A stretch of 32,000 nt of DNA from Alkalilimnicola ehrlichii MLHE-1 (GTDB lineage Bacteria; Pseudomonadota; Gammaproteobacteria; Nitrococcales; Halorhodospiraceae): contig NC_008340.1 of assembly GCF_000014785.1 (NCBI RefSeq), positions 1,890,001 to 1,922,000 on the forward strand. The letters run 5' to 3'. The position numbers were made by a program, and so were the translations under genes. The notes below the pieces were generated by a model. It was given only the letters and a program-made list of their open reading frames with translations. It did no database searches and had not been told where the DNA came from. Positions 586 to 23,100 of this stretch are shown here, piece by piece; the stretch's first letter is position 1, and each line of letters opens with the position of its first letter.

Positions 586-1374
586 TTATGCCTCGGCGGT
601 TCCCGCCGCGAGTGCCGCCTGCACCCCGTCCCAGAACCGGATGCGGGCATCCACCGCCTGCTGTGCCGCCGCCTCGGCCTCGGCATATCGATCCGGGTCC
701 CCCTCGCACAGGGCATCGAGTAGCTGCAGCGAGAGCGGACCGTGGAAGTCCGCGTCCAGATGGATGTGCCGGTTGAGGTAGTAGTGAAAGGTGGGCGCCT
801 GAGCCTCCGTCACACCCATGCGGGCGAGGAAGGCCCGAAACATACCGGGTATGATGTGCTCGCGGCCCAGCGCCAGGGCCGCTGCCACGCAGTGGGGGCG
901 ATCCTCACGGATAAAGCCGAAGGTGGTCTGCATAAACGTCCGCGCAGGCGCCGGCACCTCCGGCAGCGTCAGGGCCCGGTCGATGCCCGCCTCCGCGACC
1001 CGCTCCACAAAGGCCAGTGGGACACGGGTGTCCGCCCCCATCTCCCGCATGGCGTGGCAGTAAAGCTCGAAGTGGCTGGCGTGGCCCTGGGCACTGCCGG
1101 GGGGCGCCTCGTCCGACTCCTCCTCCTGCACCAGGCTGTTGATGAAATAGCGCAGGGGGCCCTGTCCTGGCACGGGCACCCAGGGATAGCTCGCAGGCGC
1201 CACCTGGTTCTGGAGGTATTTCACCAGGGACATGAAATCCCAGACCGAATAGATATGGTGCTCCATGAACCGGCAGAGCTGCTCGCGGGTCTCAATGGCG
1301 CCATAGACCGGATGGGCCTCCAGTCGGGTCTGGGCGGCCTCGATCACTTCGGGGCTGAAGGCGGTACGGGTCAT
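586..1374 (-). CDS. DUF3050 family protein (heme-oxygenase-like helical fold)
   Basis: 262 aa. Blocks FMEHHIYSVWDFMSLVKYLQ, SHFELY, GREHIIPGMF, YYLNRHIHLDADFHG and RIRFWDG match my recollection of DUF3050 (PF11251). The start ATG overlaps the upstream gene's stop (ATGA at 1374). Confidence 0.7.
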   Translation of the reverse strand: MTRTAFSPEVIEAAQTRLEAHPVYGAIETREQLCRFMEHHIYSVWDFMSLVKYLQNQVAPASYPWVPVPGQGPLRYFINSLVQEEESDEAPPGSAQGHASHFELYCHAMREMGADTRVPLAFVERVAEAGIDRALTLPEVPAPARTFMQTTFGFIREDRPHCVAAALALGREHIIPGMFRAFLARMGVTEAQAPTFHYYLNRHIHLDADFHGPLSLQLLDALCEGDPDRYAEAEAAAQQAVDARIRFWDGVQAALAAGTAEA

Positions 1375-1982
1375 CAGCGGTTCTCCTCACGGTTCACTTG
1401 GGGGTCCGATTCGGCGGCTGCCGGCGCCCCGGAAATCAGCGGCTCCAGCAGTTCACCGATGGCCTTGTGCAGGCGCTCGGCCATGGCCGGCCCCTCCACC
1501 TCGGTCAACTGAGCGTGGAGCCAGACATCGTCCTCGTGGCCGGCCGCGCGCCCGCCCAGGGCCCCGAGGCAATTGAAGGCGGCGTAACCCGGCATCTCAC
1601 CGTCATAGCCGGCACGCGCATAGGTGGCCAGCCGTTCGTGGGCCCGGCGCACCAGGGCCACCCCGGCCTCCGGGTCGGCCACGCTCTCGGCGGCGCCGCT
1701 GCTCATGCGCTCGACCATGGCGGCCACCAGCCGGCGGCGGTGGTCGTCGTCCACACCGCGCAGCCAGGCGAGCCGGTCCACCATCTGCACGGCGAACAGG
1801 GCCAGCTCCTCCACCAGCGCCAGATGCCCACCGGCACGATCAGTCACCGGCCCATGCTCCGAGATATCGCGCACGGTTTGCGTTGCCATGCGCCAAGCCA
1901 GCATGGCGGCGGCCCCTCCCACCTGCTCCGGGTCGCGCGTTTGGCCGTGGCGGAACCAACGGGTCTTCATCCTCATCGCCAT
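1374..1982 (-). CDS. Hypothetical protein (202 aa, predicted all-helical); no family recognised
   Basis: ORF with high third-position GC. It is translationally coupled on both sides: it starts 3 nt after the Cas6-like stop, and its stop overlaps the DUF3050 start. Confidence 0.55.
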   Translation of the reverse strand: MAMRMKTRWFRHGQTRDPEQVGGAAAMLAWRMATQTVRDISEHGPVTDRAGGHLALVEELALFAVQMVDRLAWLRGVDDDHRRRLVAAMVERMSSGAAESVADPEAGVALVRRAHERLATYARAGYDGEMPGYAAFNCLGALGGRAAGHEDDVWLHAQLTEVEGPAMAERLHKAIGELLEPLISGAPAAAESDPQVNREENR

Positions 1983-1985
1983 GCG

Positions 1986-2654
1986 CTATTCCACCTCCGT
2001 CACCGACTTGTGTGGCATGAACAGGCCACAGCCCCAAAGGCCGCCGTCCCCCAGACCGCGGGACTGCAAACGATAGCTCCCTTCAGGCCCCATCTCGGCG
2101 ACCATCAGGCTGCGCAATGTCACCGGCCCCCACCGGGTCTGCAGGGTCTGCCGGCGGCCGCACAGCATCTTGCGCGGTTTGACCCCCATCGCCGCCAGTC
2201 GGCGCGCCACCGCCTCCATGAACTCGGCCTCGTCCTCTTCCGGGTGAACCAGCGGCACCACCCGGCTGGCGTAGAGCGTCTCCACTTGCTGCAGCTCCCG
2301 CACCCGTCCCCGAGCCAGCCGACAGGCCTCGCCGTCCACCTCAAAGGCGGTGCCCGAAAGGGCCAGCGCCGCCCGGGCGCGGTCCCGTGGCACCCGCAGC
2401 AGCAATTGCACCCGGCGCGAGAGGTAGATGGGCTGGCCCTCGCCCCGGTGCCAGCCATTGCCGCTGACCGGCAAATGCAACACCTTGACGCCGAAACCGG
2501 GCAGGCGGCTGAAATCGGCGAGCGGGTCGGCCAGCGCCTCGGCCAGGGCCGGGGCGTAATCCGCGGGCAGACTGTGCCCCTCCAGCCGAAAGGTGACGTC
2601 CACGGCCTCCGCAGGACCGGGCGCGGGGGTGGACTCATCGGTCTCCCAGTACAT
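1986..2654 (-). CDS. Cas6/Cmx6-like RAMP protein (type I-MYXAN Cas6 family-like), orphan
   Basis: The N-terminus VDVTFRLEGHSLPADYAPALAEAL resembles Cmx6-type Cas6. The C-terminal glycine-rich loop GLGDGGLWGCG fits the Cas6 GhGxxxxxGhG signature and is followed by LFMPHK. The preferred start is ATG 2654 (MYWETDE): GGGAGGG lies upstream and the ATG is 2 nt after the upstream stop. The track start 2693 is an upstream alternative. Confidence 0.6.
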   Translation of the reverse strand: MYWETDESTPAPGPAEAVDVTFRLEGHSLPADYAPALAEALADPLADFSRLPGFGVKVLHLPVSGNGWHRGEGQPIYLSRRVQLLLRVPRDRARAALALSGTAFEVDGEACRLARGRVRELQQVETLYASRVVPLVHPEEDEAEFMEAVARRLAAMGVKPRKMLCGRRQTLQTRWGPVTLRSLMVAEMGPEGSYRLQSRGLGDGGLWGCGLFMPHKSVTEVE

Positions 2655-2656
2655 GC

Positions 2657-2899
2657 TCACCCTCCCTTCGCCCGGGCCCAGGCCTGCAGCCACTGAGCCA
2701 TCTCCAGGGCCATCTCCTCGGTCAACTCCACATCGGTGAAGCGCCTTCCCTGGCGCAAACGTATGCGCAGCATCGGCAACCCACCGGGGTGGGTGACCGC
2801 CTGCAACTCGCAGTCGGCACCCCAGGCCAGGGATAACTCATGCAGGGTCTTTACACCCCCCTCCTCCGGAAGGTCGTGCTCCTTACCATTAAGCATCAT
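2657..2899 (-). CDS. Small hypothetical protein (80 aa)
   Basis: The ATG at 2899 overlaps the TauD-like stop codon (ATGATG/TGA overlap). It ends KGG-TGA 2 nt before the Cas6-like ATG. No family recognised. The track's longer start (2941) would overlap the TauD-like gene by 46 nt. Confidence 0.5.
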   Translation of the reverse strand: MMLNGKEHDLPEEGGVKTLHELSLAWGADCELQAVTHPGGLPMLRIRLRQGRRFTDVELTEEMALEMAQWLQAWARAKGG

Positions 2900-3765
2900 G
2901 TCGCCATCACCCTCTCGTGATACCGCGCCCGGAACAGGCAACGGCCCGGGCCATCCGTGGGGTCAACGAAGCCGGTACGGGTGTGCAGCACGTTATTGCA
3001 GATCAGCCCCTCACCCGGCGCCAGCCGGTGCTCCAGGACCCACGGGGACAGGTGGTCCAACATCTCGCGGAGCACCACGGAGGCCTCGGCAGGCCCATCC
3101 GGCGCCCAGCGTATGCTGCGGGTGCGCGCGGTATAACGCATATGCAGCCCGGTGGGCTCGAGCAGGAAAACGGGCCCACTGCGGTCGCCCTGCTCGGGGG
3201 CACGCGGGTCCGGCGGGATGGTCATGGCCCGGGGGTGCTGCAGGGCCTTCAGGGCATCGGGCCGGGAGACGGCGAGGGCCTGCCAGACCAGCCGGTGATC
3301 CAGCAGGCGGTTGACACCGCCCTCCCGGGCCGGGCGCACGCAATGCAGGATCAGTCCGCGCACCCGGCGCTCTGGCGGATTGTAGTAGCCATCGGTGTGC
3401 CAGTTGATCGGGCGGTCGGTGTAGGGGATGTACTCCGCACGCCGCTCGCCCGCGGGCGCCTGCATCAAAGTGCTGACCCCATCCTCCCGGACCAGCGGAT
3501 GGCGATCCAGGGTCCGCAGCCCCAGTTGCTCGCCCAGTGCGACCACCTGCGCCGGCGTCTGCAGCCGCCCCGGACCGGTCCGGTATAACGCCATACCGGC
3601 CTGCCGGCAGCGCGCCTGCAGCGCCCGACGCTCTCCCGTGCTGAGCCGGGAGGGGTCGCGAATCTCCACAAAGGGTGAATCCAGAAACCGCTGGTAACCG
3701 TCGAGGTAATCGTCCAGCAGGGCGGAGCGGCCGGCGAGCGGCGGCTTGTCGGCGATGGTGGCCAT
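2896..3765 (-). CDS. TauD/TfdA-family Fe(II)/2-oxoglutarate-dependent dioxygenase
   Basis: INWHTDGYY carries the HxD facial-triad motif, and ICNNVLHTRTGF carries the distal His, as in TauD-type enzymes. The preferred start is ATG 3765 (MATIADKPP), preceded by GGAGG. The track start at 3798 is a GTG inside a palindrome. Confidence 0.8.
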   Translation of the reverse strand: MATIADKPPLAGRSALLDDYLDGYQRFLDSPFVEIRDPSRLSTGERRALQARCRQAGMALYRTGPGRLQTPAQVVALGEQLGLRTLDRHPLVREDGVSTLMQAPAGERRAEYIPYTDRPINWHTDGYYNPPERRVRGLILHCVRPAREGGVNRLLDHRLVWQALAVSRPDALKALQHPRAMTIPPDPRAPEQGDRSGPVFLLEPTGLHMRYTARTRSIRWAPDGPAEASVVLREMLDHLSPWVLEHRLAPGEGLICNNVLHTRTGFVDPTDGPGRCLFRARYHERVMAT

Positions 3766-3827
3766 CGGGCACCTCCGGGCTGTGAGCCTTAAGGTCACAC
3801 CTTAATCAAGGGCACGAGGCCACTGCA

Positions 3828-3843
3828 TATCCCCTTTGGGATA
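3828..3843. promoter_or_regulatory. Palindromic operator candidate TATCCC-CTTT-GGGATA in the divergent TauD-operon/dsrA control region
   Basis: Perfect 6-nt inverted arms with a 4-nt spacer. The identical 16-mer recurs at 22755-22770. It lies 62 nt upstream of the TauD-like ATG and 144 nt upstream of the dsrA ATG. Confidence 0.45.
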
Positions 3844-3987
3844 CAGCCCCGATCAGCCGCATCCATCAATGGATATTTTACCGCCGGGTAGGGCTGCGTA
3901 GGTTAAGCATTGTTGAATACATCGACAGCGACCGTGCGCCAGCTCGCCTGCTGGCCGCAAAAACGGTGACGGAGGAGAGGCAGCGCC

Positions 3988-5259
3988 ATGGCCACTAAGA
4001 AGTCTCACGACACACCGAATCTCGATCAACTGGAAAGCGGCCCCTGGCCCAGTTTTGTCACCGGCCTGAAGCACCTGGCCGAGGACAAACCCATGATCAA
4101 CGACCTCCTGGGTCAGCTGGAGACCAGCTACCAGGACCGCAAGGGTTACTGGAAGGGCGGCACCGTCAGTGTCTATGGCTACGGGGGCGGGATCATCCCC
4201 CGCTTCACCGAGCTAAAGGACGAGAACGGCAAGGCGAAGTTCCCTGACGCCGCCGAGTTCCACACCATGCGCGTGATGCCGCCGGCCGGCATGCACTACA
4301 ACACCGAGATCGTCCGCAAGCTCTGTGACATCTGGGAGAAGTACGGCTCCGGCCTGATCGCCATGCACGGTCAGAGTGGCGACATCATGTTCCAGGGTAT
4401 CGACACCGAGAACATCCAGGCCTGCTTCGACGAGATGAACGAGCTGGGCTTCGACCTCGGTGGCGCCGGCCCGGCGGTCCGTACCGGCATGTCCTGCGCC
4501 GGTGCCGCCCGCTGCGAGCAGTCCTGCTTCAACGAGCAGCACCTGCACCGCAAGCTGGTCAACAACTTCCTCGACGACATGCACCGCCCGGCCCTGCCCT
4601 ACAAGTTCAAATTCAAGGTCTCGGGCTGCCCCAACGACTGCATGAACTCCATCGAGCGCGCCGACTTTGCCGCCATCGGCACCTGGCGGGACGACATGCA
4701 GGTGGACCAGGAGGAGGTCAAGGCCTTCGTCGCCCGCAAGGGCCGCAAGTATGTGGTGGACAACGTCATCAGCCGCTGCCCCACCAACGCCCTGAGCCTC
4801 AACGACGACGACACCCTGGATGTGGACAACGGTAGCTGCGTGCGCTGCATGCACTGCCTCAACGTCATGAACAAGGCGCTCAGCCCGGGCAAGGACCGGG
4901 GCATGACCCTGCTCATCGGCGGCAAACGCACCCTCAAGATCGGCGACCTTTTCGGCACCGTGGTGGCGCCCTTCCTGCCCCTGAACACCGAAGAGGACTA
5001 CGACCGGGTGGTGGAGATCGCCGAGGAGATCATCGACTTCTTCGCCGAGAACGCCCTGGAGCACGAGCGTACCGGCGAGATGATCGAGCGCATCGGCCTG
5101 GTCAACTTCCTGGAAGGCGTCGGCCTGGAGGTGGACCCGAACATGGTCCGCCACCCGCGCACCGTCTCCTACGTCCGCATGGACGACTGGGATGAGGAAG
5201 CCGAGAAGTGGTTCCGGCGCAAGCAGATGGAATCCGAGACCGGCAAGGCCGCCGAGTAA
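3988..5259 (+). CDS. dsrA: Reverse dissimilatory sulfite reductase alpha subunit
   Basis: The N-terminus LDQLESGPWPSFVTG...RKGYWKGGTVSVYGYGGGIIPRFTE is near-identical in pattern to Allochromatium vinosum DsrA. It has a ferredoxin-like Cys cluster (CPTNA...CVRCMHC). An RBS GGAGGAGAGG lies upstream. Confidence 0.95.
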   Translation: MATKKSHDTPNLDQLESGPWPSFVTGLKHLAEDKPMINDLLGQLETSYQDRKGYWKGGTVSVYGYGGGIIPRFTELKDENGKAKFPDAAEFHTMRVMPPAGMHYNTEIVRKLCDIWEKYGSGLIAMHGQSGDIMFQGIDTENIQACFDEMNELGFDLGGAGPAVRTGMSCAGAARCEQSCFNEQHLHRKLVNNFLDDMHRPALPYKFKFKVSGCPNDCMNSIERADFAAIGTWRDDMQVDQEEVKAFVARKGRKYVVDNVISRCPTNALSLNDDDTLDVDNGSCVRCMHCLNVMNKALSPGKDRGMTLLIGGKRTLKIGDLFGTVVAPFLPLNTEEDYDRVVEIAEEIIDFFAENALEHERTGEMIERIGLVNFLEGVGLEVDPNMVRHPRTVSYVRMDDWDEEAEKWFRRKQMESETGKAAE

Positions 5260-5292
5260 GCCCCGAGCGACAGGTTAGCGAGGACGAGAGAA

Positions 5293-6375
5293 ATGGCTGA
5301 ACCCGCAGCAAAACCGCGTACCCCTATCGAGAGCGGGGTACCCGATCCGTTCCAGTACATGCACCCGACCACGATCCGCAACTTTGGCCAGTGGAAATAC
5401 CACGAGCGGCCGCAGCCCGGGGTGCTCAAGCACGTGGCCGAGTCCGGCGAGGCCCTCTACACGGTGCGCGCCGGCACCCAGCGCCAGATGGATCTGGCCA
5501 CCGTGCGCAAGCTCTGCGATATCGCCGACGAGTTCGCGGAGGGCCACTTCCGCTTCACCATCCGCTCCAACATCGAGTACCTGGTGGCGGACGAGGCCAA
5601 GGTGCAGCCGTTGATCGACAAGCTGCGCGCCGAGGGCTTCCCGGTGGGCGGGACCGGCCCCTCCGTGGCCATGATCAGCCACACCCAGGGCTGGCTGCAC
5701 TGTGACATCCCAGGCACCGACGCCTCCGGTGTTGTCAAGGCCCTGATGGACGAGTTGCACGACGAGTTCGTCCGCGAGGACATGCCCAACCGGGTGCACA
5801 TCACCACCTCCTGCTGCCAGATCAACTGCGGCGGCCAGGGCGACATCGCGATCAACATCCAGCACACCAAGCCGCCGAAGATCAACCACGATCTGGTGGC
5901 CAACGTCTGCGAGCGCCCCTCGGTGGTGGCCCGCTGCCCGGTGGCGGCCATTCGCCCGGCGCTGGTCAACGGTAAGCCGTCGCTGGAGGTGGACGAGCAG
6001 AAGTGCATCTGCTGCGGCGCCTGCTATCCGCCCTGTCCCCCCATGGAGATCAACGACCCGGAGCACTCCAAACTGGCGATCTGGATCGGGGGCAACCACT
6101 CCAACGCCCGTGGCGCGCCCACCTTCCACAAGCTGGTCTGTTCCGGGCTGCCCAACAACCCGCCGCGTTGGCCGGAGGTGGCCGAGGTGGTCAAGAAGAT
6201 CCTCCACGTCTACCGCGAGGACGCCCGCGACTATGAGCGGGTGGGCGAGTGGGTGGAGCGCATCGGCTGGCCGCGCTTCTTCGAGCTCACCAACCTGCCG
6301 TTCACCAAGTTCCACATCGAGAACTGGCGCGGCTCCCGGCAAACCCTCAATGCCTCTGCGCATGTGCGCTTCTAA
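5293..6375 (+). CDS. dsrB: Reverse dissimilatory sulfite reductase beta subunit
   Basis: 360 aa immediately after dsrA. It has siroheme/FeS Cys motifs (TTSCCQINCGG, CPVAAI, CICCGACYPPCP). Confidence 0.95.
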   Translation: MAEPAAKPRTPIESGVPDPFQYMHPTTIRNFGQWKYHERPQPGVLKHVAESGEALYTVRAGTQRQMDLATVRKLCDIADEFAEGHFRFTIRSNIEYLVADEAKVQPLIDKLRAEGFPVGGTGPSVAMISHTQGWLHCDIPGTDASGVVKALMDELHDEFVREDMPNRVHITTSCCQINCGGQGDIAINIQHTKPPKINHDLVANVCERPSVVARCPVAAIRPALVNGKPSLEVDEQKCICCGACYPPCPPMEINDPEHSKLAIWIGGNHSNARGAPTFHKLVCSGLPNNPPRWPEVAEVVKKILHVYREDARDYERVGEWVERIGWPRFFELTNLPFTKFHIENWRGSRQTLNASAHVRF

Positions 6376-6387
6376 GCGGGAGGTGGC

Positions 6388-6747
6388 ATGAAATTCGGAA
6401 TCCTGGTCAATGAAGGGCCCTACCAGCACCAGGCCGCGGACAGCGCCTACCTGTTCGCCAAGGCGGCCTTGGAGATGGGGCACGAAGTGCCGCGGGTGTT
6501 CTTCTACATGGACGGCGTGAACAACGCCAACAAGCTGCAGGAGCCGCAGCAGGACGACCGCAACGTGGTGCAGCGCTGGTCGGAGCTGGCCGAGAGCCAC
6601 GAGGTGGACCTGGTGGTCTGTGTCGCGGCCGCCCTGCGCCGCGGCATCAAGGACGAGATCCTCGCCCCGGGGTTTCGCATCTCCGGGCTGGGCCAGCTGG
6701 TGGAAATCGGGGTCGAGGCGGACCGCCTGGTGACCTTCGGCGACTGA
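6388..6747 (+). CDS. dsrE: Sulfurtransferase DsrE (TusD-like)
   Basis: MKFGILVNEGPYQHQAADSAY... DsrE/TusD fold, with the conserved active-site Cys in DLVVCVAAALRRGI. Gene order is dsrEFH. Confidence 0.9.
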   Translation: MKFGILVNEGPYQHQAADSAYLFAKAALEMGHEVPRVFFYMDGVNNANKLQEPQQDDRNVVQRWSELAESHEVDLVVCVAAALRRGIKDEILAPGFRISGLGQLVEIGVEADRLVTFGD

Positions 6748-6763
6748 ACGGGAGGACAACCCA

Positions 6764-7150
6764 ATGGATGAATTTGAGGACGATGCCGGCGTGATCAAGC
6801 GCTTCATGTTCGTCAACCGCAAGGCGCCGCACGGCACCATCTACGCCCTGGAATCCCTGGAGGTGGTGCTGATCAGCGCCGCCTTCGACCAGGACGTCAG
6901 CCTCGCCTTCCTGGACGACGGCGTCTACCAGCTGCGCAAGGACCAGGACCCGGCCGCGGTGGACATGAAGAACTTCTCGCGCACCTACCGCGCCCTGGAG
7001 GGCTACGACATCGAGAAGCTCTACGTCTGCAAGGACTCGCTGGCGGAACGCGGCCTGACGGAAGAGGACCTGGTGGTGGACGTGGAGGTGCTGGATCGCG
7101 CCGCCATGGCCAGAACAATGGCCGAGCAGGACGTGGTCCTGTCTTTCTAA
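6764..7150 (+). CDS. dsrF: DsrF (TusC-like)
   Basis: 128 aa, KRFMFVNRKAPHGT... TusC-like, in the position between dsrE and dsrH. Confidence 0.88.
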   Translation: MDEFEDDAGVIKRFMFVNRKAPHGTIYALESLEVVLISAAFDQDVSLAFLDDGVYQLRKDQDPAAVDMKNFSRTYRALEGYDIEKLYVCKDSLAERGLTEEDLVVDVEVLDRAAMARTMAEQDVVLSF

Positions 7151-7163
7151 GGGAGTGGGAAAG

Positions 7164-7463
7164 ATGCTGCACACCGTCAACAAATCCCCGTTTCGGACCA
7201 ACGACCTGCAGAGCTGCCTGCGGCACCTCGGCGACGGCGCCCTGCTGCTCATTGAGGATGCCGTATACGCGGCCACGCCGGGCACCCGGGTGGCGGACCA
7301 AGTGGAACAGGTCGCCTCCCAGAACGCGGTTTACGTATTGGCCAACGACCTGCAGGCCCGCGGGGTCTCCCAGGACCAACTGATCCCGGGCGTCAAGCCG
7401 GTGGACTACCAGGGTTTCGTCGAACTCGTGGTCGAGCACGGTACCCCGCAGGCCTGGCTGTAA
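7164..7463 (+). CDS. dsrH: DsrH (TusB-like)
   Basis: MLHTVNKSPF...LQSCLRHL...VQAWL-type ends match A. vinosum DsrH. ATG 7164 with GGGAG 7 nt upstream is preferred over the track's GTG at 7155. Confidence 0.88.
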   Translation: MLHTVNKSPFRTNDLQSCLRHLGDGALLLIEDAVYAATPGTRVADQVEQVASQNAVYVLANDLQARGVSQDQLIPGVKPVDYQGFVELVVEHGTPQAWL

Positions 7464-7519
7464 CGGAAACCCATCGATCAATCACATCACGCGCTGAACG
7501 ACAGCCAACGGAGGAAACC

Positions 7520-7852
7520 ATGGCGATTGAAGTCAACGGCACCACCATCGAGACCGACGAGGAAGGCTACCTCACCAATCTGGAGGAATGGAGCCCGGAG
7601 CTGGCCGAGCTCATGGCCCAGGAGGACGACCTGGAGCTGACCGAGAACCACTGGGAGGTCATCAACTTCCTGCGTGAGTACTACGAGGAATACCAGATCG
7701 CACCGGCGATCCGGGTGCTGACCAAGCAGATCGGCAAGCGTTTCGGCAAGGAGAAGGGCAACAGCAAGTACCTCTACGAGCTGTTCCCCTACGGCCCGGC
7801 CAAGCAGGCCTGCCGCTACGCCGGCCTGCCCAAGCCCACGGGCTGTGTGTAA
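7520..7852 (+). CDS. dsrC: DsrC sulfur-carrier protein
   Basis: 110 aa. The C-terminal arm AKQACRYAGLPKPTGCV carries both conserved cysteines (penultimate Cys and Cys 10 residues upstream), which are diagnostic for bona fide DsrC. Confidence 0.95.
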   Translation: MAIEVNGTTIETDEEGYLTNLEEWSPELAELMAQEDDLELTENHWEVINFLREYYEEYQIAPAIRVLTKQIGKRFGKEKGNSKYLYELFPYGPAKQACRYAGLPKPTGCV

Positions 7853-7897
7853 CCCGTTTCTCAATAGCCATTGACCCACGGCGGGGAGGAAAGCGCA

Positions 7898-8665
7898 GTG
7901 TCGGCACTGATTGCCCTACTCTTCTATCTGGCCACAGCGGTATTGCTGGCGGGGTTGGCCTGGCGCATCTATTTATACGCCCGGACGCCCGCGCCGCTGC
8001 GCATTCCCACCACCCCCGCCCCCACCACCCGCGGCGGCGCGGCGTTGCGTGTCGCCCGCGAGGTGGTCCTTTTTCAAAGCCTGTTCCGCGCCAACAAGTG
8101 GATCTGGCTGCTCGGCTGGGCCTTCCATGTGGCCCTGCTGCTCGTCTTGCTGCGTCACTTGCGGTATTTCATCGAGCCGGTTTGGGGCTGGGTGGTGCTG
8201 ATCCAGCCCTTCGGGCTCTACGCCGGCTTCGTCATGGTGGCCGCCCTGATCGGGCTCTGGATCCGCCGGATCGGCGTGGCCCGGATCAAGGCCATCACGG
8301 GGCCCTCGGATCACCTCATGCTCGCCCTGCTGGTGGCCATCGGGCTCTCCGGCCTGGGCATGAAGTACCTGCAGCCCACCGACATCACCGGCGTCAAGGC
8401 CTACATGCTGGGGCTGATGCGCTTCGACTGGCAGCCGCTGCCCGGCGACCCGCTGCTCATCCTCCACCTGCTGTTGGTCGCTGCGCTGATGATCGTCTTC
8501 CCGTTCAGTAAGTTGCTGCACGCCCCCGGGGTGTTTTTCAGCCCCACCCGCAACCAACCCGACAACCCACGTGAGCGTCGCCACCTGGCGCCCTGGGCCG
8601 CGGCCCTGGAGCGCGGGACGGCCTCTGCCCATCCGAACCCGGCCCGCGAAGAGGTGCAGTCGTGA
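7898..8665 (+). CDS. dsrM: DsrM, NarI-like dihaem b membrane subunit of DsrMKJOP
   Basis: Multi-helix hydrophobic protein with the PLRIPTTPAP motif. GTG 7898 with GGAGGAA 8 nt upstream is preferred over the track's TTG at 7871. Confidence 0.85.
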   Translation: MSALIALLFYLATAVLLAGLAWRIYLYARTPAPLRIPTTPAPTTRGGAALRVAREVVLFQSLFRANKWIWLLGWAFHVALLLVLLRHLRYFIEPVWGWVVLIQPFGLYAGFVMVAALIGLWIRRIGVARIKAITGPSDHLMLALLVAIGLSGLGMKYLQPTDITGVKAYMLGLMRFDWQPLPGDPLLILHLLLVAALMIVFPFSKLLHAPGVFFSPTRNQPDNPRERRHLAPWAAALERGTASAHPNPAREEVQS

Positions 8666-10209
8666 AGAAACCCAGCTTCGAGACCCCGAGCCTGCCGGAG
8701 TACGTGGACACCCCGGAGCTTCAGCCAGGCGCCACCGCAGAGGTCAAGCCCTATGTGGCCGCGGAGAAGCACCAGACCCCCCTGGGCTTCCCGGGGGAGC
8801 TGCCGGACGACTGGCAGGACCGTGCCCTGACCCGTTTCGAGGAACTGCTGGAGCGCAACCGCGGGCTGCGGGTCTATATGGACGCCTGCGTCCGCTGCGG
8901 TGCCTGCACCGACAAGTGTCACTACTTCCTCGGCACCGGTGATCCGAGCAACATGCCGGTGGCGCGTCAGAACCTGATGCGCGACGTCTATCGGCGCTAC
9001 TTCACCCCGGCCGGCCGCACCTTCCCCAAGCTGGTAGGCGCCCGCGATCTCACCCGCGACGTCCTGGATGAGTGGTTCACCTACTTCCACCAGTGCTCCC
9101 AGTGCCGGCGCTGCTCGGTCTTCTGCCCCTATGGTATCGATACCGCCGAGATCTCCATGGCCGCCCGCGAGATCCTGGACGCCGCCGGCTACGGCCAGAA
9201 ATACAGCAACGAGATCATCGGCAAGGTCCACACCATCGGCAACAACCTGGGCCTGCCCGGCCCGGCCCTGGAGGACACCCTCGAGGACCTGGAGGAGGAC
9301 CTGGAGGACGAGACCGGTCAGCCGGTGAAGCTCCCCCTCGATCAGGAGGGCGCCGATGTCCTCCTGGTCACCCCCTCGGCGGACTTCTTCGCGGAGCCTC
9401 ACATCGACGGGCTGATGGGTTACGCCAAGGTCTTTCACCAGGCCGGCCTGTCCTGGACGCTCAGCACCCACGCCTCGGAGGCCGCCAACTTCGCCATGTT
9501 CATCGGCAGCTACGAGAACATGCGCAAGGTTGCCCTGCGTATCCGCGAGGCGGCGGTAAAGCTGGGGGTTAAGCGCATCGTGGTGGGCGAGTGCGGTCAC
9601 GCCTGGCGCGTCGCCTACAGCTTTTGGAACACCCTGGCGGGGATCGGCCACGGCGCCGAGCCCGACGATGAGTACGCGCGGATCCTGCAGGACCAGCTCG
9701 ATCCCAACTACCCGGTGCCACAGCACATCGTGGAACTCACCAACGACCTGGTGGACCGTGGCGTCGTCAAGCTCGACCCCGACGCCAATGCCGATATGCG
9801 CTTGACCTTCCACGACTCCTGCAACGTGGCCCGGGCCTCGCGCATGGGCAGCGCCCCCGGCGGCCAATTTCAACTTCCGCGCCGCCTGCTCCGCGCCAGC
9901 CTGCCCCGGGACAACTTCCACGACATGGCGGCAGAGACCATCGGCGACCGCACCTTTTGTTGCGGCGGTGGCGGCGGCCTGCTCACCGACGAGCTGATGG
10001 AGATCCGGGTCAAGGGGGCCATGCCCCGCATGCAGGCGCTGCGCGAGGCCATGGACCAACACGGCACCACGCATATGGCCGCCATCTGCGCCATCTGCAA
10101 GACCCAGTTCAGCAAGGTGCTGCCCTATTACGACATGCCCCCGGACATGATCGTGAGCCTGCACCAAGTCGTGGGCAACGCCATCCGTATGGACGCCTCG
10201 GACGTCTAG
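8662..10209 (+). CDS. dsrK: DsrK, HdrD-like Fe-S/CCG-domain subunit
   Basis: Fe-S motifs CVRCGACTDKC and CSQCRRCSVFCP, plus CCG-domain motifs (HDSCNVAR, FCCGGGGG). The GTG start overlaps the dsrM stop (GTGA). Confidence 0.92.
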   Translation: MKKPSFETPSLPEYVDTPELQPGATAEVKPYVAAEKHQTPLGFPGELPDDWQDRALTRFEELLERNRGLRVYMDACVRCGACTDKCHYFLGTGDPSNMPVARQNLMRDVYRRYFTPAGRTFPKLVGARDLTRDVLDEWFTYFHQCSQCRRCSVFCPYGIDTAEISMAAREILDAAGYGQKYSNEIIGKVHTIGNNLGLPGPALEDTLEDLEEDLEDETGQPVKLPLDQEGADVLLVTPSADFFAEPHIDGLMGYAKVFHQAGLSWTLSTHASEAANFAMFIGSYENMRKVALRIREAAVKLGVKRIVVGECGHAWRVAYSFWNTLAGIGHGAEPDDEYARILQDQLDPNYPVPQHIVELTNDLVDRGVVKLDPDANADMRLTFHDSCNVARASRMGSAPGGQFQLPRRLLRASLPRDNFHDMAAETIGDRTFCCGGGGGLLTDELMEIRVKGAMPRMQALREAMDQHGTTHMAAICAICKTQFSKVLPYYDMPPDMIVSLHQVVGNAIRMDASDV

Positions 10210-10256
10210 CCAGATACCGGGCCCCCGGGCCCGCACAAGATTGGGGAGCAAGCCAA

Positions 10257-12203
10257 ATGAGCACCACCACCAACGAGATGCAGTCGCTGACCCTGCGCCG
10301 ATTCAAGGAGGGCGACCATCAGCCCAAGGACTGGCAGGAGCAGATCTTCCAGGCCGGCTGGTCGCACAAGTGCCCCACCTATGTGCACCGGACACCGCCG
10401 TGCCAGGGCAGTTGCCCGGCGGGCGAGGATATCCGGGGCTGGTTGCAGATTGCCCGCGGACTGGACAAGCCGACGGCGGACGAACCCTGGCAGGCCTATG
10501 CCTTCCGTCGCCTCACCGAGGCGAACCCCTTTCCTGCGGTAATGGGCCGGGTCTGCCCCGCCCCCTGCGAACAGGGGTGCAACCGTAACGCGGTGGAGGA
10601 TCACGTTGGCATCAACGCCGTGGAACATAAGATTGGCGACTGGGCGCGGGAAAATGATCTGAAATTCGATGCCCCGGGCGAGCCCACCGGCCGCCACGTG
10701 GCGATCATCGGCAGCGGCCCGGCCGGTATGGCCGCGGCTTACCAACTGCGCAAACGGGGCCATGCCTGCACCCTGTTCGAGGCCCAGGAGGAACTGGGCG
10801 GCATGATGCGCTACGGCATCCCGGGCTACCGCGTCCCGCGGCAGGTTCTCGATGCCGAGATCCAGCGCATCCTCGACCTGGGCGTGGAGGTCCGCACCGG
10901 GGTCTGGGTCGGCCGGGACATCACCATCGAACAGCTCGACAACGACTACGACGCCGTTCTCTGGGCGGTCGGCACCCACAAAGGGCGCGACCTGCCGGTG
11001 GAGGGCTTCGAGGCGGCGCCCAACTGCCTCACCGGTGTGGACTTCCTGCGGGCCTTCAACGAGGGCCGGCTGCACGCGGTGAGCGACCGGGTCATCGTGA
11101 TCGGCGGCGGTGACACCTCCATCGACGTGGCCTCGGTCGCCCGCCGGCTTGGCTACAGCTCGGAGCTCGGCGACAACCAGGGCGTGGAGCACGTGGTGAT
11201 GGGCTATACCGCCCACGATGCCGCCAGCCTGGCGGTGCGGGAAGGGGCCAAGGTCACCCTCACCTCCCTGTTCCCGCGCGAGGAGATGACTGCCACCGAC
11301 CAAGAGGTGGAGGACGCCCTGCGCGAGGGGGTGGACATCAAGGCCGGCGTCATGCCGGTGGCCGTAATCACCGATGACGAGGGCAGGGCCACCGCCGTGC
11401 GCTTCGCCGAATGCCGGATGGAGAAAAACCGCCCCGTCCCCCTGGAAGGCACGGAGTTCGAGGTCGAGACCGACCTGGTGATCTCGGCCATCGGCCAGAT
11501 GGGCAACCTGGAGGGGCTGGAGGCGCTGGACAACGGCAACGGCTTCATGGACTGCGACCCCCACTTCCAGGTCAAGGGTCGACCGGGGCACTTCGTGGCC
11601 GGGGACATCATCCGCCCGCACCTGCTGACCACCGCCATCGGCCAGGCCCGCAGCGCGGTCGCCAGCATGGATCACTACTTCCAGACCGGCGAACCCGCCA
11701 AGTTCCCCAAGATCAACGTCCTGCACTTCAACCTGCTGCAGGCGATGCGCAAGGCGGGCCAGGAGCCGACGCCCTACGAGCCGCAGCCGGTGCGCGGCAC
11801 CGCCGACTCGGCTTTCGCCGTCCACAACTACGAGGACCGCTCCAAGGTCGAGATCATCAAACACGACCAGCTCTTCCTCGGCCATTTCAAGCCGACACCA
11901 CGCCACCAGCGCCAGCATCGCGAGATCAGTGAAGACTCGGTGATCGGTGATTTCGATGAGCGGCTCCATCCGTTGTCCGATGAGGAGGCCGTCGCTGAGG
12001 CCGAGCGCTGCATGAGTTGCGGCCTCTGCTTCGAGTGCGACAACTGCCTGATCTACTGCCCCCAGGACGCGGTCGAGCGGGTGCCGAAAAAGGAACGCGC
12101 GACCGGTCGCTACGTGCAGACCGATTACACCCGCTGCATCGGCTGTCATATCTGCCGCGATGTCTGCCCCACCGGTTACATCGAGATGGGGCTGGGGGAA
12201 TAA
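10257..12203 (+). CDS. dsrL: DsrL, NAD(P)H:acceptor oxidoreductase (GltD-like flavoprotein with C-terminal ferredoxin domain)
   Basis: Internal ATG at 10257 (MSTTTNEMQSL). The upstream 100 codons of track ORF 9957.. overlap dsrK and are Arg/Gly/His/Pro-rich junk. It has the dinucleotide folds VAIIGSGPAGMAAA and VIVIGGGDTSIDVA, and a C-terminal 2x[4Fe-4S] region CMSCGLCFECDNCLIYCP / CIGCHICRDVCP. Confidence 0.92.
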   Translation: MSTTTNEMQSLTLRRFKEGDHQPKDWQEQIFQAGWSHKCPTYVHRTPPCQGSCPAGEDIRGWLQIARGLDKPTADEPWQAYAFRRLTEANPFPAVMGRVCPAPCEQGCNRNAVEDHVGINAVEHKIGDWARENDLKFDAPGEPTGRHVAIIGSGPAGMAAAYQLRKRGHACTLFEAQEELGGMMRYGIPGYRVPRQVLDAEIQRILDLGVEVRTGVWVGRDITIEQLDNDYDAVLWAVGTHKGRDLPVEGFEAAPNCLTGVDFLRAFNEGRLHAVSDRVIVIGGGDTSIDVASVARRLGYSSELGDNQGVEHVVMGYTAHDAASLAVREGAKVTLTSLFPREEMTATDQEVEDALREGVDIKAGVMPVAVITDDEGRATAVRFAECRMEKNRPVPLEGTEFEVETDLVISAIGQMGNLEGLEALDNGNGFMDCDPHFQVKGRPGHFVAGDIIRPHLLTTAIGQARSAVASMDHYFQTGEPAKFPKINVLHFNLLQAMRKAGQEPTPYEPQPVRGTADSAFAVHNYEDRSKVEIIKHDQLFLGHFKPTPRHQRQHREISEDSVIGDFDERLHPLSDEEAVAEAERCMSCGLCFECDNCLIYCPQDAVERVPKKERATGRYVQTDYTRCIGCHICRDVCPTGYIEMGLGE

Positions 12204-12221
12204 GCCCCGGAGGAGCCGTCT

Positions 12222-12788
12222 ATGCGACACCGTTACCTGCTGGGCGCGGCCGTGCTGCTGGTGATACTGGCCGGTGCCACCTATGCCCTCACCCCCACGG
12301 CGCCGGACCGGGATCAGGCCGGGCGCGTGCCGGTGCCGCTGCTGCCGGAGGCGGCGGGTGAGGCCTGCATCGCTGACCCGGAGACCATGCGCCGCGAGCA
12401 CATGCACCTGCTGGCGAAACAGAAGCGCGACGGCGTGCGGCACGGGATCCGCCGCGACGACCAAAGCCTACAGGCCTGTGTGGACTGCCACGCGGTGCGC
12501 CCGGAGCAGTCCCTGGCCGAGCAGAGCCGCCTGGGCAGCCGTGAGCCCATGGCCTTCTGTATCAACTGCCACAGCTACAACGCCGTGCGCTTGGACTGCT
12601 TTGAGTGCCACTCGTCGACACCGAGCGATCCGGACCACAGGCACACGCTGGAGGGGACCGGGGTGCCCACCGGCCATTACCGCAAGCCACGGCTCGAGGG
12701 GTTGGACCTGGGCGCGCTGTCCCGGGCCTACGCCGCGGACACCCCCAGCACCAGCCGCGAACAGGGAGGGGCCAACGATGAGCAGTGA
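12222..12788 (+). CDS. dsrJ: DsrJ, trihaem cytochrome c
   Basis: Three CxxCH motifs (CVDCH, CINCH, CFECH) and an N-terminal signal anchor LLGAAVLLVILAGATYA. Confidence 0.9.
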   Translation: MRHRYLLGAAVLLVILAGATYALTPTAPDRDQAGRVPVPLLPEAAGEACIADPETMRREHMHLLAKQKRDGVRHGIRRDDQSLQACVDCHAVRPEQSLAEQSRLGSREPMAFCINCHSYNAVRLDCFECHSSTPSDPDHRHTLEGTGVPTGHYRKPRLEGLDLGALSRAYAADTPSTSREQGGANDEQ

Positions 12789-13563
12789 TCCGCGCGAACA
12801 GGGCTGCGCCCGCAACGGGGGAGACACCCCGTGCAACCCGACGCGCCGCCGTATGCTCGCTGCCGGCGCCGGGCTGCTGGGCCTGTCGGTGGCACCGGGG
12901 GTATTCCTGATGCAGGCCGGCGCCACATCGGACGCCGGCACCGCCACCGGGGCCTCCCCCCGGGTCCGCTGGGGACTGCTGATCGACACCACCCGCTGCG
13001 CCGAGGGCTGTGACGCCTGCGTGCGCGCCTGCCGGGAGGAAAACGGCTGGGCCCATCTGGGCCAGGCACCGACCGATGCCCAGTGGATCCGCAAGGTGAC
13101 GGTCAGCGATCCGGACACCGGCCACAGCCAGAGCCTGCCGGTGATGTGCCAGCACTGCGCCCATCCGCCCTGCGTCCAGGTCTGCCCCACCGGCGCGTCC
13201 ATGCAGCGGGCCGACGGCATCGTCCAGGTGGACAAGCACCTCTGCATCGGTTGCCGCTATTGCATGATGGCCTGCCCCTATAAGGCGCGCTCCTTCGTTC
13301 ATGAGCCGGTCACCGAGTTCTCCCCCAACAGCCCCCGGGGCAAGGGCACGGTGGAGTCCTGCCACCTGTGCGTGCACCGGATCGACCGGGGCCAGTTGCC
13401 CGCCTGCGTGACCCGCTGCGCCTCAGAAGGGGGCGGGGCTATGGTCTTCGGCGATCTCAACGATCCGGACAGCGACATCTCGCAGGCCCTGAGCCGCCAC
13501 GGCGGCCGGGCCATCCGCCAGGACCTGGGGCTGAACCCCGGCGTGCGGTACCAGGGCATCTGA
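12778..13563 (+). CDS. dsrO: DsrO, periplasmic 4x[4Fe-4S] ferredoxin-like subunit
   Basis: The start at ATG 12778 overlaps dsrJ by 11 nt. It has a twin-arginine signal (TRRRMLAAGAG) and several Fe-S cysteine clusters (CAEGCDACVRAC, CQHCAHPPCVQVCP, CIGCRYCMMACP, CHLC...C). The track ORF start at 12274 is a spurious extension across dsrJ. Confidence 0.9.
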   Translation: MSSDPREQGCARNGGDTPCNPTRRRMLAAGAGLLGLSVAPGVFLMQAGATSDAGTATGASPRVRWGLLIDTTRCAEGCDACVRACREENGWAHLGQAPTDAQWIRKVTVSDPDTGHSQSLPVMCQHCAHPPCVQVCPTGASMQRADGIVQVDKHLCIGCRYCMMACPYKARSFVHEPVTEFSPNSPRGKGTVESCHLCVHRIDRGQLPACVTRCASEGGGAMVFGDLNDPDSDISQALSRHGGRAIRQDLGLNPGVRYQGI

Positions 13564-13575
13564 GGGGATTCGGCA

Positions 13576-14853
13576 ATGAGTCAACGCATCCAATACCGCG
13601 AATTGACCGACAACGGGACGGGCTATCTGGCCGTGCAGGCCGGCCTGGCACTGCTGGTCCTGCTGGGCGCCGGCGTGGCGCTGTGGATGATGAATGTCGG
13701 GCACTACGTGACCGGCATGGACAACCAGGTGGTCTGGGGCACGCCCCACGTCTTCGCCGTGCTGCTGATCCTGGCCGCCTCGGGGGCGCTCAACGTCGCC
13801 TCACTGGCCTCGGTGTTCGGCCGCAGCGAGTACAAACCGCTCTCGCGCCTTTCCGGCGTGCTGGCCATGGCCCTGCTGGCCGGGGGGCTGGCGGTGCTGG
13901 TCCTGGACCTCGGCCGACCGGACCGGCTGATCGTGGCCATGACCCACTACAACCTGCAGTCCATCTTCGCCTGGAACATCTTCCTGTACACCGGCTTCTT
14001 TGTCGTGGTGGCGGTGTACCTGTGGTTCCAGATGGAGCGGCGGATGAACCGCCATGCCAACGCCGCGGGCACTGTGGCCTTCGCCTGGCGCATCGTGCTC
14101 ACCACCGGCACCGGCTCGATCTTCGGCTTCCTGGTGGCCCGCAGCGCCTTCGACACCGCCCTACTCGCCCCGCTGTTCATCGCCGCATCCCTGAGTTACG
14201 GCACCGCCGCCTTCATCCTGGTGGCCAGCGGCCTCCTTCGGGTACAGAACCGCCGGCTGCCGCAAGAGCTGCTCAGGGGATTGGGCCGCCTGCAGGTGCT
14301 GTTTATTCTCGCTACCGTCTACCTGCTGGCCATCTACCTGGTCACCCACGCCTACATGCCGGACCGCCACGGCGTCCTGCGTTTCCTGTTGTTGGAGGGC
14401 GGGGTCTACCCGGCCCTCTTCTGGGGCGTCCAGATCCTGCTGGGGGCGGTGCTACCACTCTTCCTGCTGCTGACCGGCCCGGGCGCCGGCGCCCCGATGC
14501 GGTTGGTGGCCGCCGCTGGCCTGGTGTTGCTGGGCGGGCTGGCACACCTGTACGTCACCATCATCGGCGCCCAGGCCTATCCCTTGGCGCTGTTCCCCGG
14601 CATGACGGTGTCCAGCACCTTCTTCGACGGCCAGGTCACCCACTACGCCCCCACCCTGCCGGAGGTCGTGCTCGGCATAGGGGGCATCGCCCTGGCGACG
14701 CTGCTGGTCTGTCTCGCCACCCGGGTCCTGCCCATCGTCCCCGACGCACTGCCCGGCGAGGCCGAAGAGCGCCGCGAGGCCGAGGCCGCCACCCGCGAGC
14801 CGGACAGTGAAGCTGCGCCACAGACGGCCATCACCCAACAGGACACCGCCTGA
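13576..14853 (+). CDS. dsrP: DsrP, NrfD/PsrC-like integral membrane subunit
   Basis: 425-aa polytopic membrane protein in the canonical position after dsrO. Confidence 0.9.
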   Translation: MSQRIQYRELTDNGTGYLAVQAGLALLVLLGAGVALWMMNVGHYVTGMDNQVVWGTPHVFAVLLILAASGALNVASLASVFGRSEYKPLSRLSGVLAMALLAGGLAVLVLDLGRPDRLIVAMTHYNLQSIFAWNIFLYTGFFVVVAVYLWFQMERRMNRHANAAGTVAFAWRIVLTTGTGSIFGFLVARSAFDTALLAPLFIAASLSYGTAAFILVASGLLRVQNRRLPQELLRGLGRLQVLFILATVYLLAIYLVTHAYMPDRHGVLRFLLLEGGVYPALFWGVQILLGAVLPLFLLLTGPGAGAPMRLVAAAGLVLLGGLAHLYVTIIGAQAYPLALFPGMTVSSTFFDGQVTHYAPTLPEVVLGIGGIALATLLVCLATRVLPIVPDALPGEAEERREAEAATREPDSEAAPQTAITQQDTA

Positions 14854-14868
14854 AACGAGGGTTGCATC

Positions 14869-15867
14869 ATGACCAAGTCCCTGCCACCGGAACACCCCTT
14901 TGCCACCGTCATCCGCACCCTGGGCAAGGGTCCCCAGAGCAGCCGCTCGCTCAGCCAGGAGGAGGCCGAGGCGGCCATGGGGGCGATCCTGGACGACGCC
15001 GTCCAGCCCATGCAACTGGGCGCCTTTCTCATGCTGTTGCGGGTCAAGGGGGAGACGGGTGAGGAGATGGCGGGCTTTGCCCGCGCCGCCCGGGCACGGC
15101 TGCAACGCCCTCATCAACCGCTGGCGGTGGACCTGGACTGGCCCAGCTATGCCGGCAAAAAGCGCCGCCTGCCCTGGTACCTGCTGGCGGCGAAGCTCCT
15201 GTCGCAGCAGGGCTACCGGATCCTGATGCACGGCTCCTCGGTCCATACCCCGGGACGGCTCTATGCCGAGACCGTGCTCGACCTGCTGGACCTGCCCCGC
15301 TGCAACAGTTGGGAGGAGGCCGGACGGGCCCTCGATCAGCACCACTTCGCCTACCTCCCGCTCGAAGTGCTCTCCCCCCGTATGGAGGCGTTGATCAACC
15401 TGCGCCCGGTGCTGGGCCTGCGCTCGCCCATCCATACCCTGGCCCGCCTGCTCAACCCGGCGAACGCCCCGGCCAGCCTGCACGGCATCTTCCACCCCGG
15501 CTATCTGCAGGTGCACCTGGCGGCTGCCGAGACCCTGGGCGAGCAGATGCTGGTGGTCAAGGGTGACGGCGGGGAGGCGGAGTTCATGCCGGACACCGTC
15601 TGCAAACTCCGCACGTCGGGGCTCCCCCTCCCCTCGGAGATCACCCTGGGGCCGTGGATGGAGCGCCAGGGCCGCAAGGGACTGGTGATGCCGGAAGCCG
15701 AGCAACTGATGCGCGTTTGGGAGGGGGACCTGGAGGACCGCTACGCCGAGTCGGCAGTGATCGGGACCACGGGTCTCGCTCTGCTGGCCATGAACCAACA
15801 CGACAAACCCCAGGCCGCCTTCGACGAGGCGGCACGGCTCTGGGCCCGCCGGCCGGTGCCGGCCTGA
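14869..15867 (+). CDS. TrpD2/YbiB-family protein (anthranilate phosphoribosyltransferase-like fold, non-catalytic paralogue)
   Basis: Blocks IRTLGKGPQSSRSL, LGAFLMLLRVKGETGEEMAGF, WPSYAGKKRRLPW..ILMHG, LRSPIHTLARLLNP and HPGYL...VVKGDGGEAE align with my recollection of E. coli YbiB. The TrpD GTGGD PRPP motif is not seen. The gene is 15 nt after dsrP and 16 nt before dsrN. Confidence 0.75.
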   Translation: MTKSLPPEHPFATVIRTLGKGPQSSRSLSQEEAEAAMGAILDDAVQPMQLGAFLMLLRVKGETGEEMAGFARAARARLQRPHQPLAVDLDWPSYAGKKRRLPWYLLAAKLLSQQGYRILMHGSSVHTPGRLYAETVLDLLDLPRCNSWEEAGRALDQHHFAYLPLEVLSPRMEALINLRPVLGLRSPIHTLARLLNPANAPASLHGIFHPGYLQVHLAAAETLGEQMLVVKGDGGEAEFMPDTVCKLRTSGLPLPSEITLGPWMERQGRKGLVMPEAEQLMRVWEGDLEDRYAESAVIGTTGLALLAMNQHDKPQAAFDEAARLWARRPVPA

Positions 15868-15883
15868 ACGGGAGGACGCTGCC

Positions 15884-17302: not shown

Positions 17303-17332
17303 CCGGGAACAAAAACCACGCGGAGGAGTTCG

Positions 17333-18604: not shown

Positions 18605-18623
18605 TCGGCGCCAAGGCAGAGGC

Positions 18624-22455: not shown

Positions 22456-22613
22456 TGCACTCCTCCAGTCAGGGCCTTGTTACCGAGGGGCCTGACGCTT
22501 CCTCAACCGCCCGGGGGCGTTGTCGTTATAGTGGTGAACCGCGTCGTCCTGATGCCGGGGCATCGCAGCCGCGATTCACTGCTGTGAGCCCTCTTCGGGG
22601 CTTCTTACATTCA

Positions 22614-22642
22614 AAAATACAATAAGGTTATTCCATTGGCAA
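22614..22642 (-). promoter_or_regulatory. Candidate sigma70 promoter for the kinase/regulator operon
   Basis: On the minus strand: TTGCCA (22642-22637), a 17-nt spacer, then TATTTT (22619-22614). It lies in an AT-rich island about 160 nt upstream of the kinase ATG. Pattern match only. Confidence 0.3.
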
Positions 22643-23066: not shown

Positions 23067-23100
23067 CCCCACAACCCGTCATCATCACAGCGAGAGAGGC

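Follow-up and report, generated by a model that had tools for sequence, protein, structure and literature searches.

A conserved 16-bp palindrome in the dsrA promoter of Alkalilimnicola ehrlichii MLHE-1, very probably a DNA operator of a sulfur-oxidation regulon

The closest described counterparts of the 16-bp palindrome TATCCCCTTTGGGATA, which lies in the dsrA promoter of Alkalilimnicola ehrlichii MLHE-1 within the 32,000-nucleotide stretch analysed here (the window), are the 7-2-7 sites of Escherichia coli NarL/NarP (TACYYMT heptamers; engineered narG −89/−89 site, TACCCCTAAAGGGGTA). Both elements are 16 bp long and consist of inverted heptamers around a 2-bp A/T centre, and a response regulator encoded in the window shares with NarL the REC and GerE domains and the base-contacting lysines. 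However, the half-site is TATCCC in the window and TACCCC in NarL sites, the window kinase is of a cytoplasmic GAF type whereas NarX is a periplasmic nitrate sensor, and the targets are sulfur-oxidation genes instead of those for nitrate respiration. The nirB and nrfA promoters, controlled by NarL/NarP together with FNR, have one 7-2-7 site upstream, at about −70 to −75, and another site near −41.5, a layout similar to that of the window. The CsoR/CstR regulators are comparable in that they use C/G-tract pseudo-palindromes flanked by TA(C)/(G)TA and include TTHA1953 and CstR, which regulate sulfur oxidation genes, but their sites usually overlap the −35/−10 region, repress and are often at least 20 bp long, with tetramers or octamers as the binding form. 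The arms of the NreC box (TAGGG-N4-CCCTA type) have a polarity opposite to those of the window palindrome. In Bacillus licheniformis, NreBC (a HisKA_3 kinase with a NarL-family regulator) activates the sulfide-oxidation genes sqr-pdo on sulfide, and a second sulfur-sensing regulator, the CstR-like YrkD, is found alongside it. The two regulators there recall the two promoter elements of the window, but that system differs in its Gram-positive host, PAS/NreB-type kinase and SQR-PDO pathway, and has no orthology with the window system. Pairs of a LuxR-type regulator and a histidine kinase also stand beside the sox genes of lucinid symbionts, as the window pair stands beside dsr; no operator was defined there, and the role of LuxR-type regulators beside sulfur genes was stated as unknown in a 2024 symbiont study. 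As a kind of element, a NarL-type operator in a two-component regulon, the palindrome is familiar; what is new is how widely it is conserved, the fixed design of its promoter and the tie to dsr. The initial annotation had known of no established operator consensus for dsr control, and literature searches likewise turned up no described dsr operator.

Purple sulfur bacteria, free-living chemolithotrophs and symbionts of animals, that of Riftia among them, oxidise stored sulfur mainly by the reverse-dsr pathway. A conserved 16-bp operator would offer, through a specific regulator–operator pair, a handle on how the dsr genes are switched on, and this pair is testable because the promoter layout is fixed and the candidate kinase–regulator pair is physically linked to dsr. 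The motif may also be used for predicting sulfur-oxidation regulons in genomes and metagenomes.

Copies of the palindrome and their conservation

The perfect palindrome, with 6-nt arms (TATCCC/GGGATA) that are fully complementary and a 4-nt non-palindromic spacer, was found as first described, together with its exact second copy 18,927 bp away, both on the + strand (positions in Table 1); written as a 7-2-7 element it reads TATCCCC-TT-TGGGATA. Both copies were confirmed to lie in divergent intergenic regions upstream of sulfur-oxidation genes, the first between the TauD-like gene and dsrA, the second between the histidine kinase gene and the TusA-domain gene that heads the tusA-fcc operon. The centre of site 1 is at about −75.5 from the predicted dsrA transcription start and about 70 nt from the divergent TauD-like start codon, and site 2 is 300 nt from the start of the kinase gene. 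Further copies, beyond the two of the initial annotation, were detected upstream of cysG (30805 and 30836) and, in weak form, in the dsrA promoter (3860). The full 16-mer with up to three mismatches gave 3 matches in the window, against 0.05 expected, and the arms with up to two mismatches gave four sites in 32 kb, namely the two exact copies, 30805 and 30836. With a position weight matrix (PWM) built from independent metagenomic dsrA promoters, the top five matches in the window were 22755, 3828, 30805, 30836 and 3860, all within three promoter regions, and the site at 30805 scored 14.0, compared with a mean of 8.7 for the shuffle maxima. A pairing at 31–32 bp is common to 30805/30836, 3828/3860 and a further pair at 10646/10677 of contig L211 (contigs and loci other than the window are given by L numbers).

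Since exact repeats of 16-mers number four in the window (shuffles: mean 1.4, maximum 6), the recurrence of this one is by itself weak evidence. The expectation of about 1e-5 first attached to it stands for a 16-mer specified beforehand and does not stand for one picked post hoc. The other three repeats (69/17972, 4446/30737 and 9250/28887) are GC-rich and inside gene coordinates, consistent with chance in a genome of 67% GC; unlike them, TATCCCCTTTGGGATA is palindromic, AT-flanked and intergenic in both copies.

Conservation was evaluated in two collections. When the exact 16-mer was scanned against the genomes of 185,579 species (596 Gb, about 280 chance matches expected, at least 120 stretches listed), it was found directly upstream of dsrA in at least 9 other species among the 120 matches listed, which are mostly chance matches. 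These species comprise Chromatiales STE_6, Thiohalobacter, Thiohalophilus, Sedimenticolaceae, Candidatus Endoriftia persephone and four further Gammaproteobacteria, with DsrA proteins 58–78% identical to that of the window. In 7 of these 9, a TauD-like gene was also detected on the far side of the 16-mer (41–48% identity where detected), and the flanking DNA of these loci could not be aligned. No stretch among the matches listed carried more than one copy, and the source genome was not represented among them. In the second collection, 80 metagenomic dsrA loci were sampled, 67 of which had at least 350 nt upstream, and the region from −450 to −60 was searched. TATCCC-N4-GGGATA with up to two mismatches was present in 45 of the 67, against 0.6 expected from shuffles, and 11 of these 45 had exact arms; arm matches with three mismatches occurred at about chance frequency and were set aside. 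The loci without the palindrome gave no alternative motif, their upstream regions being unrelated and many of them AT-rich. Halorhodospira halophila carries TATCCCGAAAGGGATA with the same layout, and Denitratisoma, a betaproteobacterium, a 15-bp variant, TACCCCTTTCGGGTA. Conservation of the arms extends over many sulfur oxidisers of the Gammaproteobacteria and, in a variant form, of the Betaproteobacteria, while flanks and spacer vary. A loss of the site upstream of dsrA in relatives, which the initial annotation had named as a refutation, was not what these searches returned. Another candidate, TCCCCCGTTTGGGATA, is located in H. halophila between the genes for the regulator and the YeeE-like protein and is kept in three Halorhodospira-type contigs, but was rejected as a full site, being without element II (described below); it is a possible half-site only.

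Promoter architecture and the nature of the element

When 52 non-redundant promoters were aligned on the palindrome, three conserved blocks appeared: the palindrome, a second block (element II, consensus cACCCCATnGGTAGGGTgTTc) at a fixed offset about 18 nt downstream of it, and a TAnnnT hexamer (TAGACT, TAGAAT, TAAACT, TAAAAT and others) located 55–58 nt past the palindrome in 51 of the 52. The gap was 55 nt in 3 promoters, 56 in 30, 57 in 12 and 58 in 6. With the hexamer taken as the −10 element, the palindrome would be centred near −76.5 and element II, likewise an inverted element, near −42, over a poor −35. In the dsrA promoter of the window, element II is 32 bp from operator I, centre to centre, and overlaps a weak −35; a good −35 is absent, and a sigma-70 consensus scan gave no full promoter at this site, which is consistent with activator dependence. 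H. halophila carries CTCCTTGAATGGATATTCC at the element II position. At site 2, element II occurs at the offset seen in the dsrA promoters, and the −10 may be the GATGCT of Table 1 or, alternatively, CAGACT at 22817–22822. The cysG site keeps the paired layout, and its downstream architecture is atypical. No leftward promoter was found at a fixed distance in the 40 nt left of the palindrome among the 52 promoters, and on inspection no leftward sigma-70 promoter could be read from element II and the −10. A terminator function was rejected: the intrinsic terminator scan gave none at 3700–4050, and its sole candidate at 22400–22900 (22500–22517) is off the site.

The variation among the sites points to recognition as DNA. 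The spacer occurs in 25 versions, with A/T at the central 2 bp in 50 of the 52 sites, conservation is highest at the outer positions TAT.C, the asymmetric spacer is found in both orientations relative to dsrA and the half-sites degenerate independently. Among the 40 arm pair-cells off consensus, compensation is seen in only 4 and a mismatch on both strands in 12; the others allow a wobble pair on one of the two strands (9 to 15). The hairpin predicted for the window sequence has −6.1 kcal/mol and that for TATCAC..GGGATA only −0.2 kcal/mol, and no Rfam family was matched. Rigid phasing to the −10 is a property of promoter DNA. The variable spacer, the A/T centre and the arm changes that mostly break pairing therefore argue for a DNA operator bound by a dimer, and not for an RNA hairpin. 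The palindrome is thus very probably a protein-bound DNA operator of a sulfur-oxidation regulon, as judged from sequence comparison; the proposal of a dimeric transcription-factor operator made at the outset gains support from the conservation, the half-site degeneracy, the variable spacer, the A/T centre and the spacing to the −10.

Candidate binders and competing explanations

The binder may well be the adjacent NarL/FixJ-family response regulator, an assignment made with modest confidence because the link of regulator to site is wholly circumstantial. The best match of the regulator among solved structures was E. coli NarL, with K188 and K192 kept and V189 replaced by L (recognition helix TVKLHIKS, compared with TVKVHVKH in NarL). 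The helix SDGTVKLH of its helix-turn-helix is invariant in 11 orthologs that range from Alkalilimnicola to Chromatiaceae and an Olavius symbiont, which agrees with an operator that hardly changes. The palindrome shares 12 of 16 positions with the engineered NarL site, and the variant from L157, TACCCCAAAGGGGGTA, shares 14 of 16; of the 7 positions of TACYYMT, each heptamer agrees at 5, about 90% of the sites have T at position 3, and 6 of 104 half-sites are of the TACCCC variant. The regulator scored 182.8 bits with the NCBIfam NarL model (cut-off 250) and the kinase 119.6 with that for NarX (cut-off 578), and because of these scores and the GAF type of the kinase the regulator is not a NarL ortholog.

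The presumed cognate kinase is apparently cytoplasmic, with a GAF sensor and without the periplasmic domain of NarX, and has its own sigma-70-like promoter at 22642–22614. Its GAF domain has a conserved CxC...C motif, with C134 and C152 invariant in 7 orthologs, which is a candidate site for sensing sulfide or sulfane sulfur and makes the protein a candidate cytoplasmic sensor of these compounds. The kinase–regulator pair was dsr-linked in 6 of the 8 contexts looked up: in the window it adjoins the dsr operon, and in five others (H. halophila, L210, L211, L212 and L215) it comes directly after dsrN or dsrR. The two remaining contexts, L126/127 and L216, have the pair ahead of a rhodanese gene. 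No such pair was seen near dsrA in the metagenome loci, which end before the 3' end of the operon.

In the mechanism proposed here, the promoter would be bipartite, conserved and dependent on an activator, with the 16-mer as its upstream operator of high affinity. It would serve the reverse-dsr operon and, in A. ehrlichii, the tusA-fccAB-Mo-oxidoreductase operon and probably cysG as well. The cytoplasmic GAF kinase would sense sulfide or sulfane sulfur through its CxC...C motif, and a dimer of the phosphorylated regulator would bind the 7-2-7 site and, more weakly, element II, and so recruit RNA polymerase. The presence of the kinase–regulator pair inside the dsr operon in Halorhodospira and L215 would give positive feedback. 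In A. ehrlichii and H. halophila, a possible leftward promoter would have the site at about −43, where it could also activate the divergent accessory operon, which is probably co-regulated from the dsrA intergenic region. The motif would thereby link, in A. ehrlichii, dsr, the tusA-fccAB-Mo-oxidoreductase operon, sirohaem synthesis and an uncharacterised accessory operon that contains a Cas6-like gene.

Several observations weigh against this proposal. The transcription start and the −10 are themselves inferred from the letters of the promoters. The arms of element II are spaced at about 7-4-7, unlike those of operator I, and because of this difference a second protein may be involved. The two Chromatiaceae-type ortholog contexts, L126/127 and L216, had no palindrome nearby. 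Among the metagenomic dsrA loci with at least 2.5 kb upstream, a Cas6-like gene was present in 29 of the 33 with the palindrome and in none of the 11 without it (Fisher p = 1.8e-7), the TauD-like gene being present in both groups. The likeness to NarL sites is common also to pseudo-palindromes of the CsoR/CstR type. Lastly, DsrC reportedly binds the dsr promoter of A. vinosum.

The last two points bear on the explanation that survives best after the NarL-type regulator, namely that the palindrome is a DNA operator of a different regulator, such as a persulfide-sensing repressor of the CsoR/CstR type, DsrC, a protein like DsrC, or some other factor. This is possible but rather doubtful. In a version with two regulators, an activator would act at −76.5 and a repressor of the CstR kind would occupy element II, over the −35. 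The operators of the CsoR family, which control genes of sulfur oxidation in Thermus, Staphylococcus and Bacillus, are pseudo-palindromes whose G/C tracts are flanked by TAC/GTA. Like repressor sites, element II (CACCCC...GGGTG) overlaps the −35, and DsrC-like genes occur in the divergent module of many loci. Against this, the window genes scanned included no CsoR-family or other helix-turn-helix gene except the NarL-family regulator, the modules of A. ehrlichii and H. halophila lack DsrC-like genes, and the position of the palindrome, far upstream of the core promoter, is that of an activator site. Compared with CsoR/CstR sites, which have a G/C run of at least 4 and overlap the core promoter, operator I has a C run of 3–4 and is at about −76, and element II comes closer. 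The 16-bp 7-2-7 geometry, together with a dsr-linked NarL-type pair, fits the regulator proposed above better.

It is improbable that the palindrome acts as an RNA hairpin (6-bp stem and tetraloop) recognised by the stand-alone Cas6/Cmx6 homolog and serving in processing or autoregulation, perhaps as part of the leader of the divergent operon, or that this protein binds it as DNA, for which there is no precedent. The co-occurrence of gene and palindrome given above favours the idea, and the protein has a confidently predicted Cas6 fold (AlphaFold pLDDT of 89.9; TM-scores of 0.71–0.74 to Cas6 of type I-B CRISPR-associated transposons) with an invariant glycine-rich loop and histidine. Stem and loop are also similar in size to those of Cas6 substrates. 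However, pairing is not kept in the arms, as the few compensated pair-cells and the split of wobble-compatible cells between the strands indicate; natural variants common among the sites lose hairpin stability, and the arm sequence itself is conserved, not pairing alone. The site is, moreover, upstream of a rightward −10 to which it is rigidly phased, and no fixed leftward promoter element accompanies it. Sites 2 and 3 have no Cas6-like gene nearby, and L201 and L204 present the full architecture without such a gene within 10 kb. The association may reflect lineage, co-regulation of the accessory module, or a direct role or another factor; the lineage reading is based on the upstream regions of the palindrome-less loci, which are unrelated and often AT-rich. 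If recognition by Cas6 were true, it would mean that dissimilatory sulfur oxidation had domesticated a CRISPR RNA-binding protein for its control or biogenesis.

Chance recurrence or a dispersed repeat of the REP (repetitive extragenic palindromic) type, the latter raised as a possible refutation in the initial annotation, is very improbable: exact 16-mer repeats are not rare in so GC-rich a window (4 against a shuffle mean of 1.4), but the site is present at orthologous promoters across genera despite diverged flanks, its copies in the 32 kb are all at promoters, none of the matches listed has more than one copy on a stretch, and nothing terminator-like or REP-like surrounds the sites.

Accessory module, gene map and side observations

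The gene map (Table 1) was obtained by GC3-guided calling of open reading frames and by Pfam/NCBIfam scans; the response regulator and DsrA it contains are 100% identical to proteins of A. ehrlichii MLHE-1. The Mo-oxidoreductase of target operon 2 comes with iron–sulfur and membrane subunits, and this operon also holds a NapC/NirT gene; the cysG product supplies the cofactor of DsrAB.

Table 1. Promoter elements and genes of the window, with positions counted from its first letter
Feature	Position	Strand	Basis or remark
Operator I, dsrA promoter: TATCCCCTTTGGGATA	3828–3843	.	Exact match; conserved in orthologous dsrA promoters
Element II, dsrA promoter: weak palindrome CATCCATCAATGGATA, ATCC-N6-GGAT	3860–3875	.	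Fifth-best PWM match
Inferred −10 TAGGTT, dsrA promoter	3899–3904	+	TAnnnT spacing
Operator I, tusA-like/fccAB/Mo-oxidoreductase promoter: same sequence as site 1	22755–22770	.	Best PWM match, 27.4 bits
Element II, site 2: CTCCCATCAGACGGATTGTC	22788–22807	+	Offset from palindrome as in dsrA promoters; compared with consensus and L176 (caccccatcagtgaggtgttc)
Possible −10 GATGCT, 55 nt past site 2 palindrome (weak call)	22826–22831	+	Position only
Degenerate operator upstream of cysG: CCTCCCAAAAGGGATA, right arm intact	30805–30820	.	Third-best PWM match
Second degenerate copy upstream of cysG: TAGCCTGTCGGGGATA, 31 bp from first	30836–30851	.	PWM
Divergent accessory operon: TauD-like, DUF6967, stand-alone Cas6/Cmx6 homolog, 202-aa unknown protein, DUF3050	586–3765	−	
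TauD-like gene	2896–3765	−	
Stand-alone Cas6/Cmx6 homolog	1986–2654	−	PF09559, E = 4e-59
Target operon 1: dsrABEFHCMKLJOP, YbiB-like gene, dsrN, YeeE/TsuA-like gene, SulP	3988–20378	+	
dsrA	3988–5259	+	
NarL/FixJ-family response regulator (REC + GerE helix-turn-helix, 221 aa), candidate binder	20450–21115	−	Pfam
GAF-HisKA_3-HATPase sensor kinase, presumed cognate of the regulator	21115–22455	−	
Target operon 2: TusA-like, dihaem cytochrome c, FccB, Mo-oxidoreductase (PhsA/Psr/Soe-like)	22870–30758	+	
TusA-domain gene heading operon 2	22870–23340	+	
cysG (sirohaem synthase), possible target 3, extends past the window end	30929–32000	+	

The module that contains the Cas6-like gene recurs in most of the palindrome-bearing metagenomic loci, and in Denitratisoma (L213) the same module, with TusA and DsrC-like genes, adjoins dsrA. 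No CRISPR context was seen around the Cas6-like gene of the window. Even without binding to the palindrome, a conserved Cas6 outside CRISPR, in a dsr accessory module with TusA, DsrC-like, TauD-like and DUF6967 proteins, has no known function. The TusA-domain protein of operon 2 has an N-terminal extension of about 80 aa, and its homologs are inside the dsrA-divergent accessory module in L156, L179, L196 and L213; because of this placement elsewhere, the A. ehrlichii module seems to be split between two palindrome-controlled loci.

Other observations concern the surroundings of the kinase–regulator pair. In L211, the palindromes TATCACTAAAGAGATA and ATACCCTGTCAAGGGTAT (10646–10694), 32 bp apart, directly follow the regulator gene and precede a rhodanese gene, the second of them being closer to the NarL/CsoR-type TACCC...GGGTA form. 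In L215, three to four tandem units of about 115 nt were found at 10434–10932, downstream of the rhodanese gene that comes after the pair. The dsrN–kinase intergenic region of Halorhodospira-type contigs (L124, 8411–8596; L210, 5109–5285; L212, 6138–6316) has conserved blocks (CCCCTTTATT..., GATGAATATAGTCTGAAT..., AACAAGGA...GGGGCCCCCGGT) that could be an internal promoter or an RNA element. Within the dsr operon of the window, a YbiB/TrpD2-like gene (14869–15867, +) occupies the interval between dsrP and dsrN, and the operon ends in a YeeE/TsuA-like transporter gene (17333–18604, +) and a SulP permease gene (18624–20378, +), the same pair of transporters that comes after the kinase–regulator pair in Halorhodospira (L124, L210 and L212).

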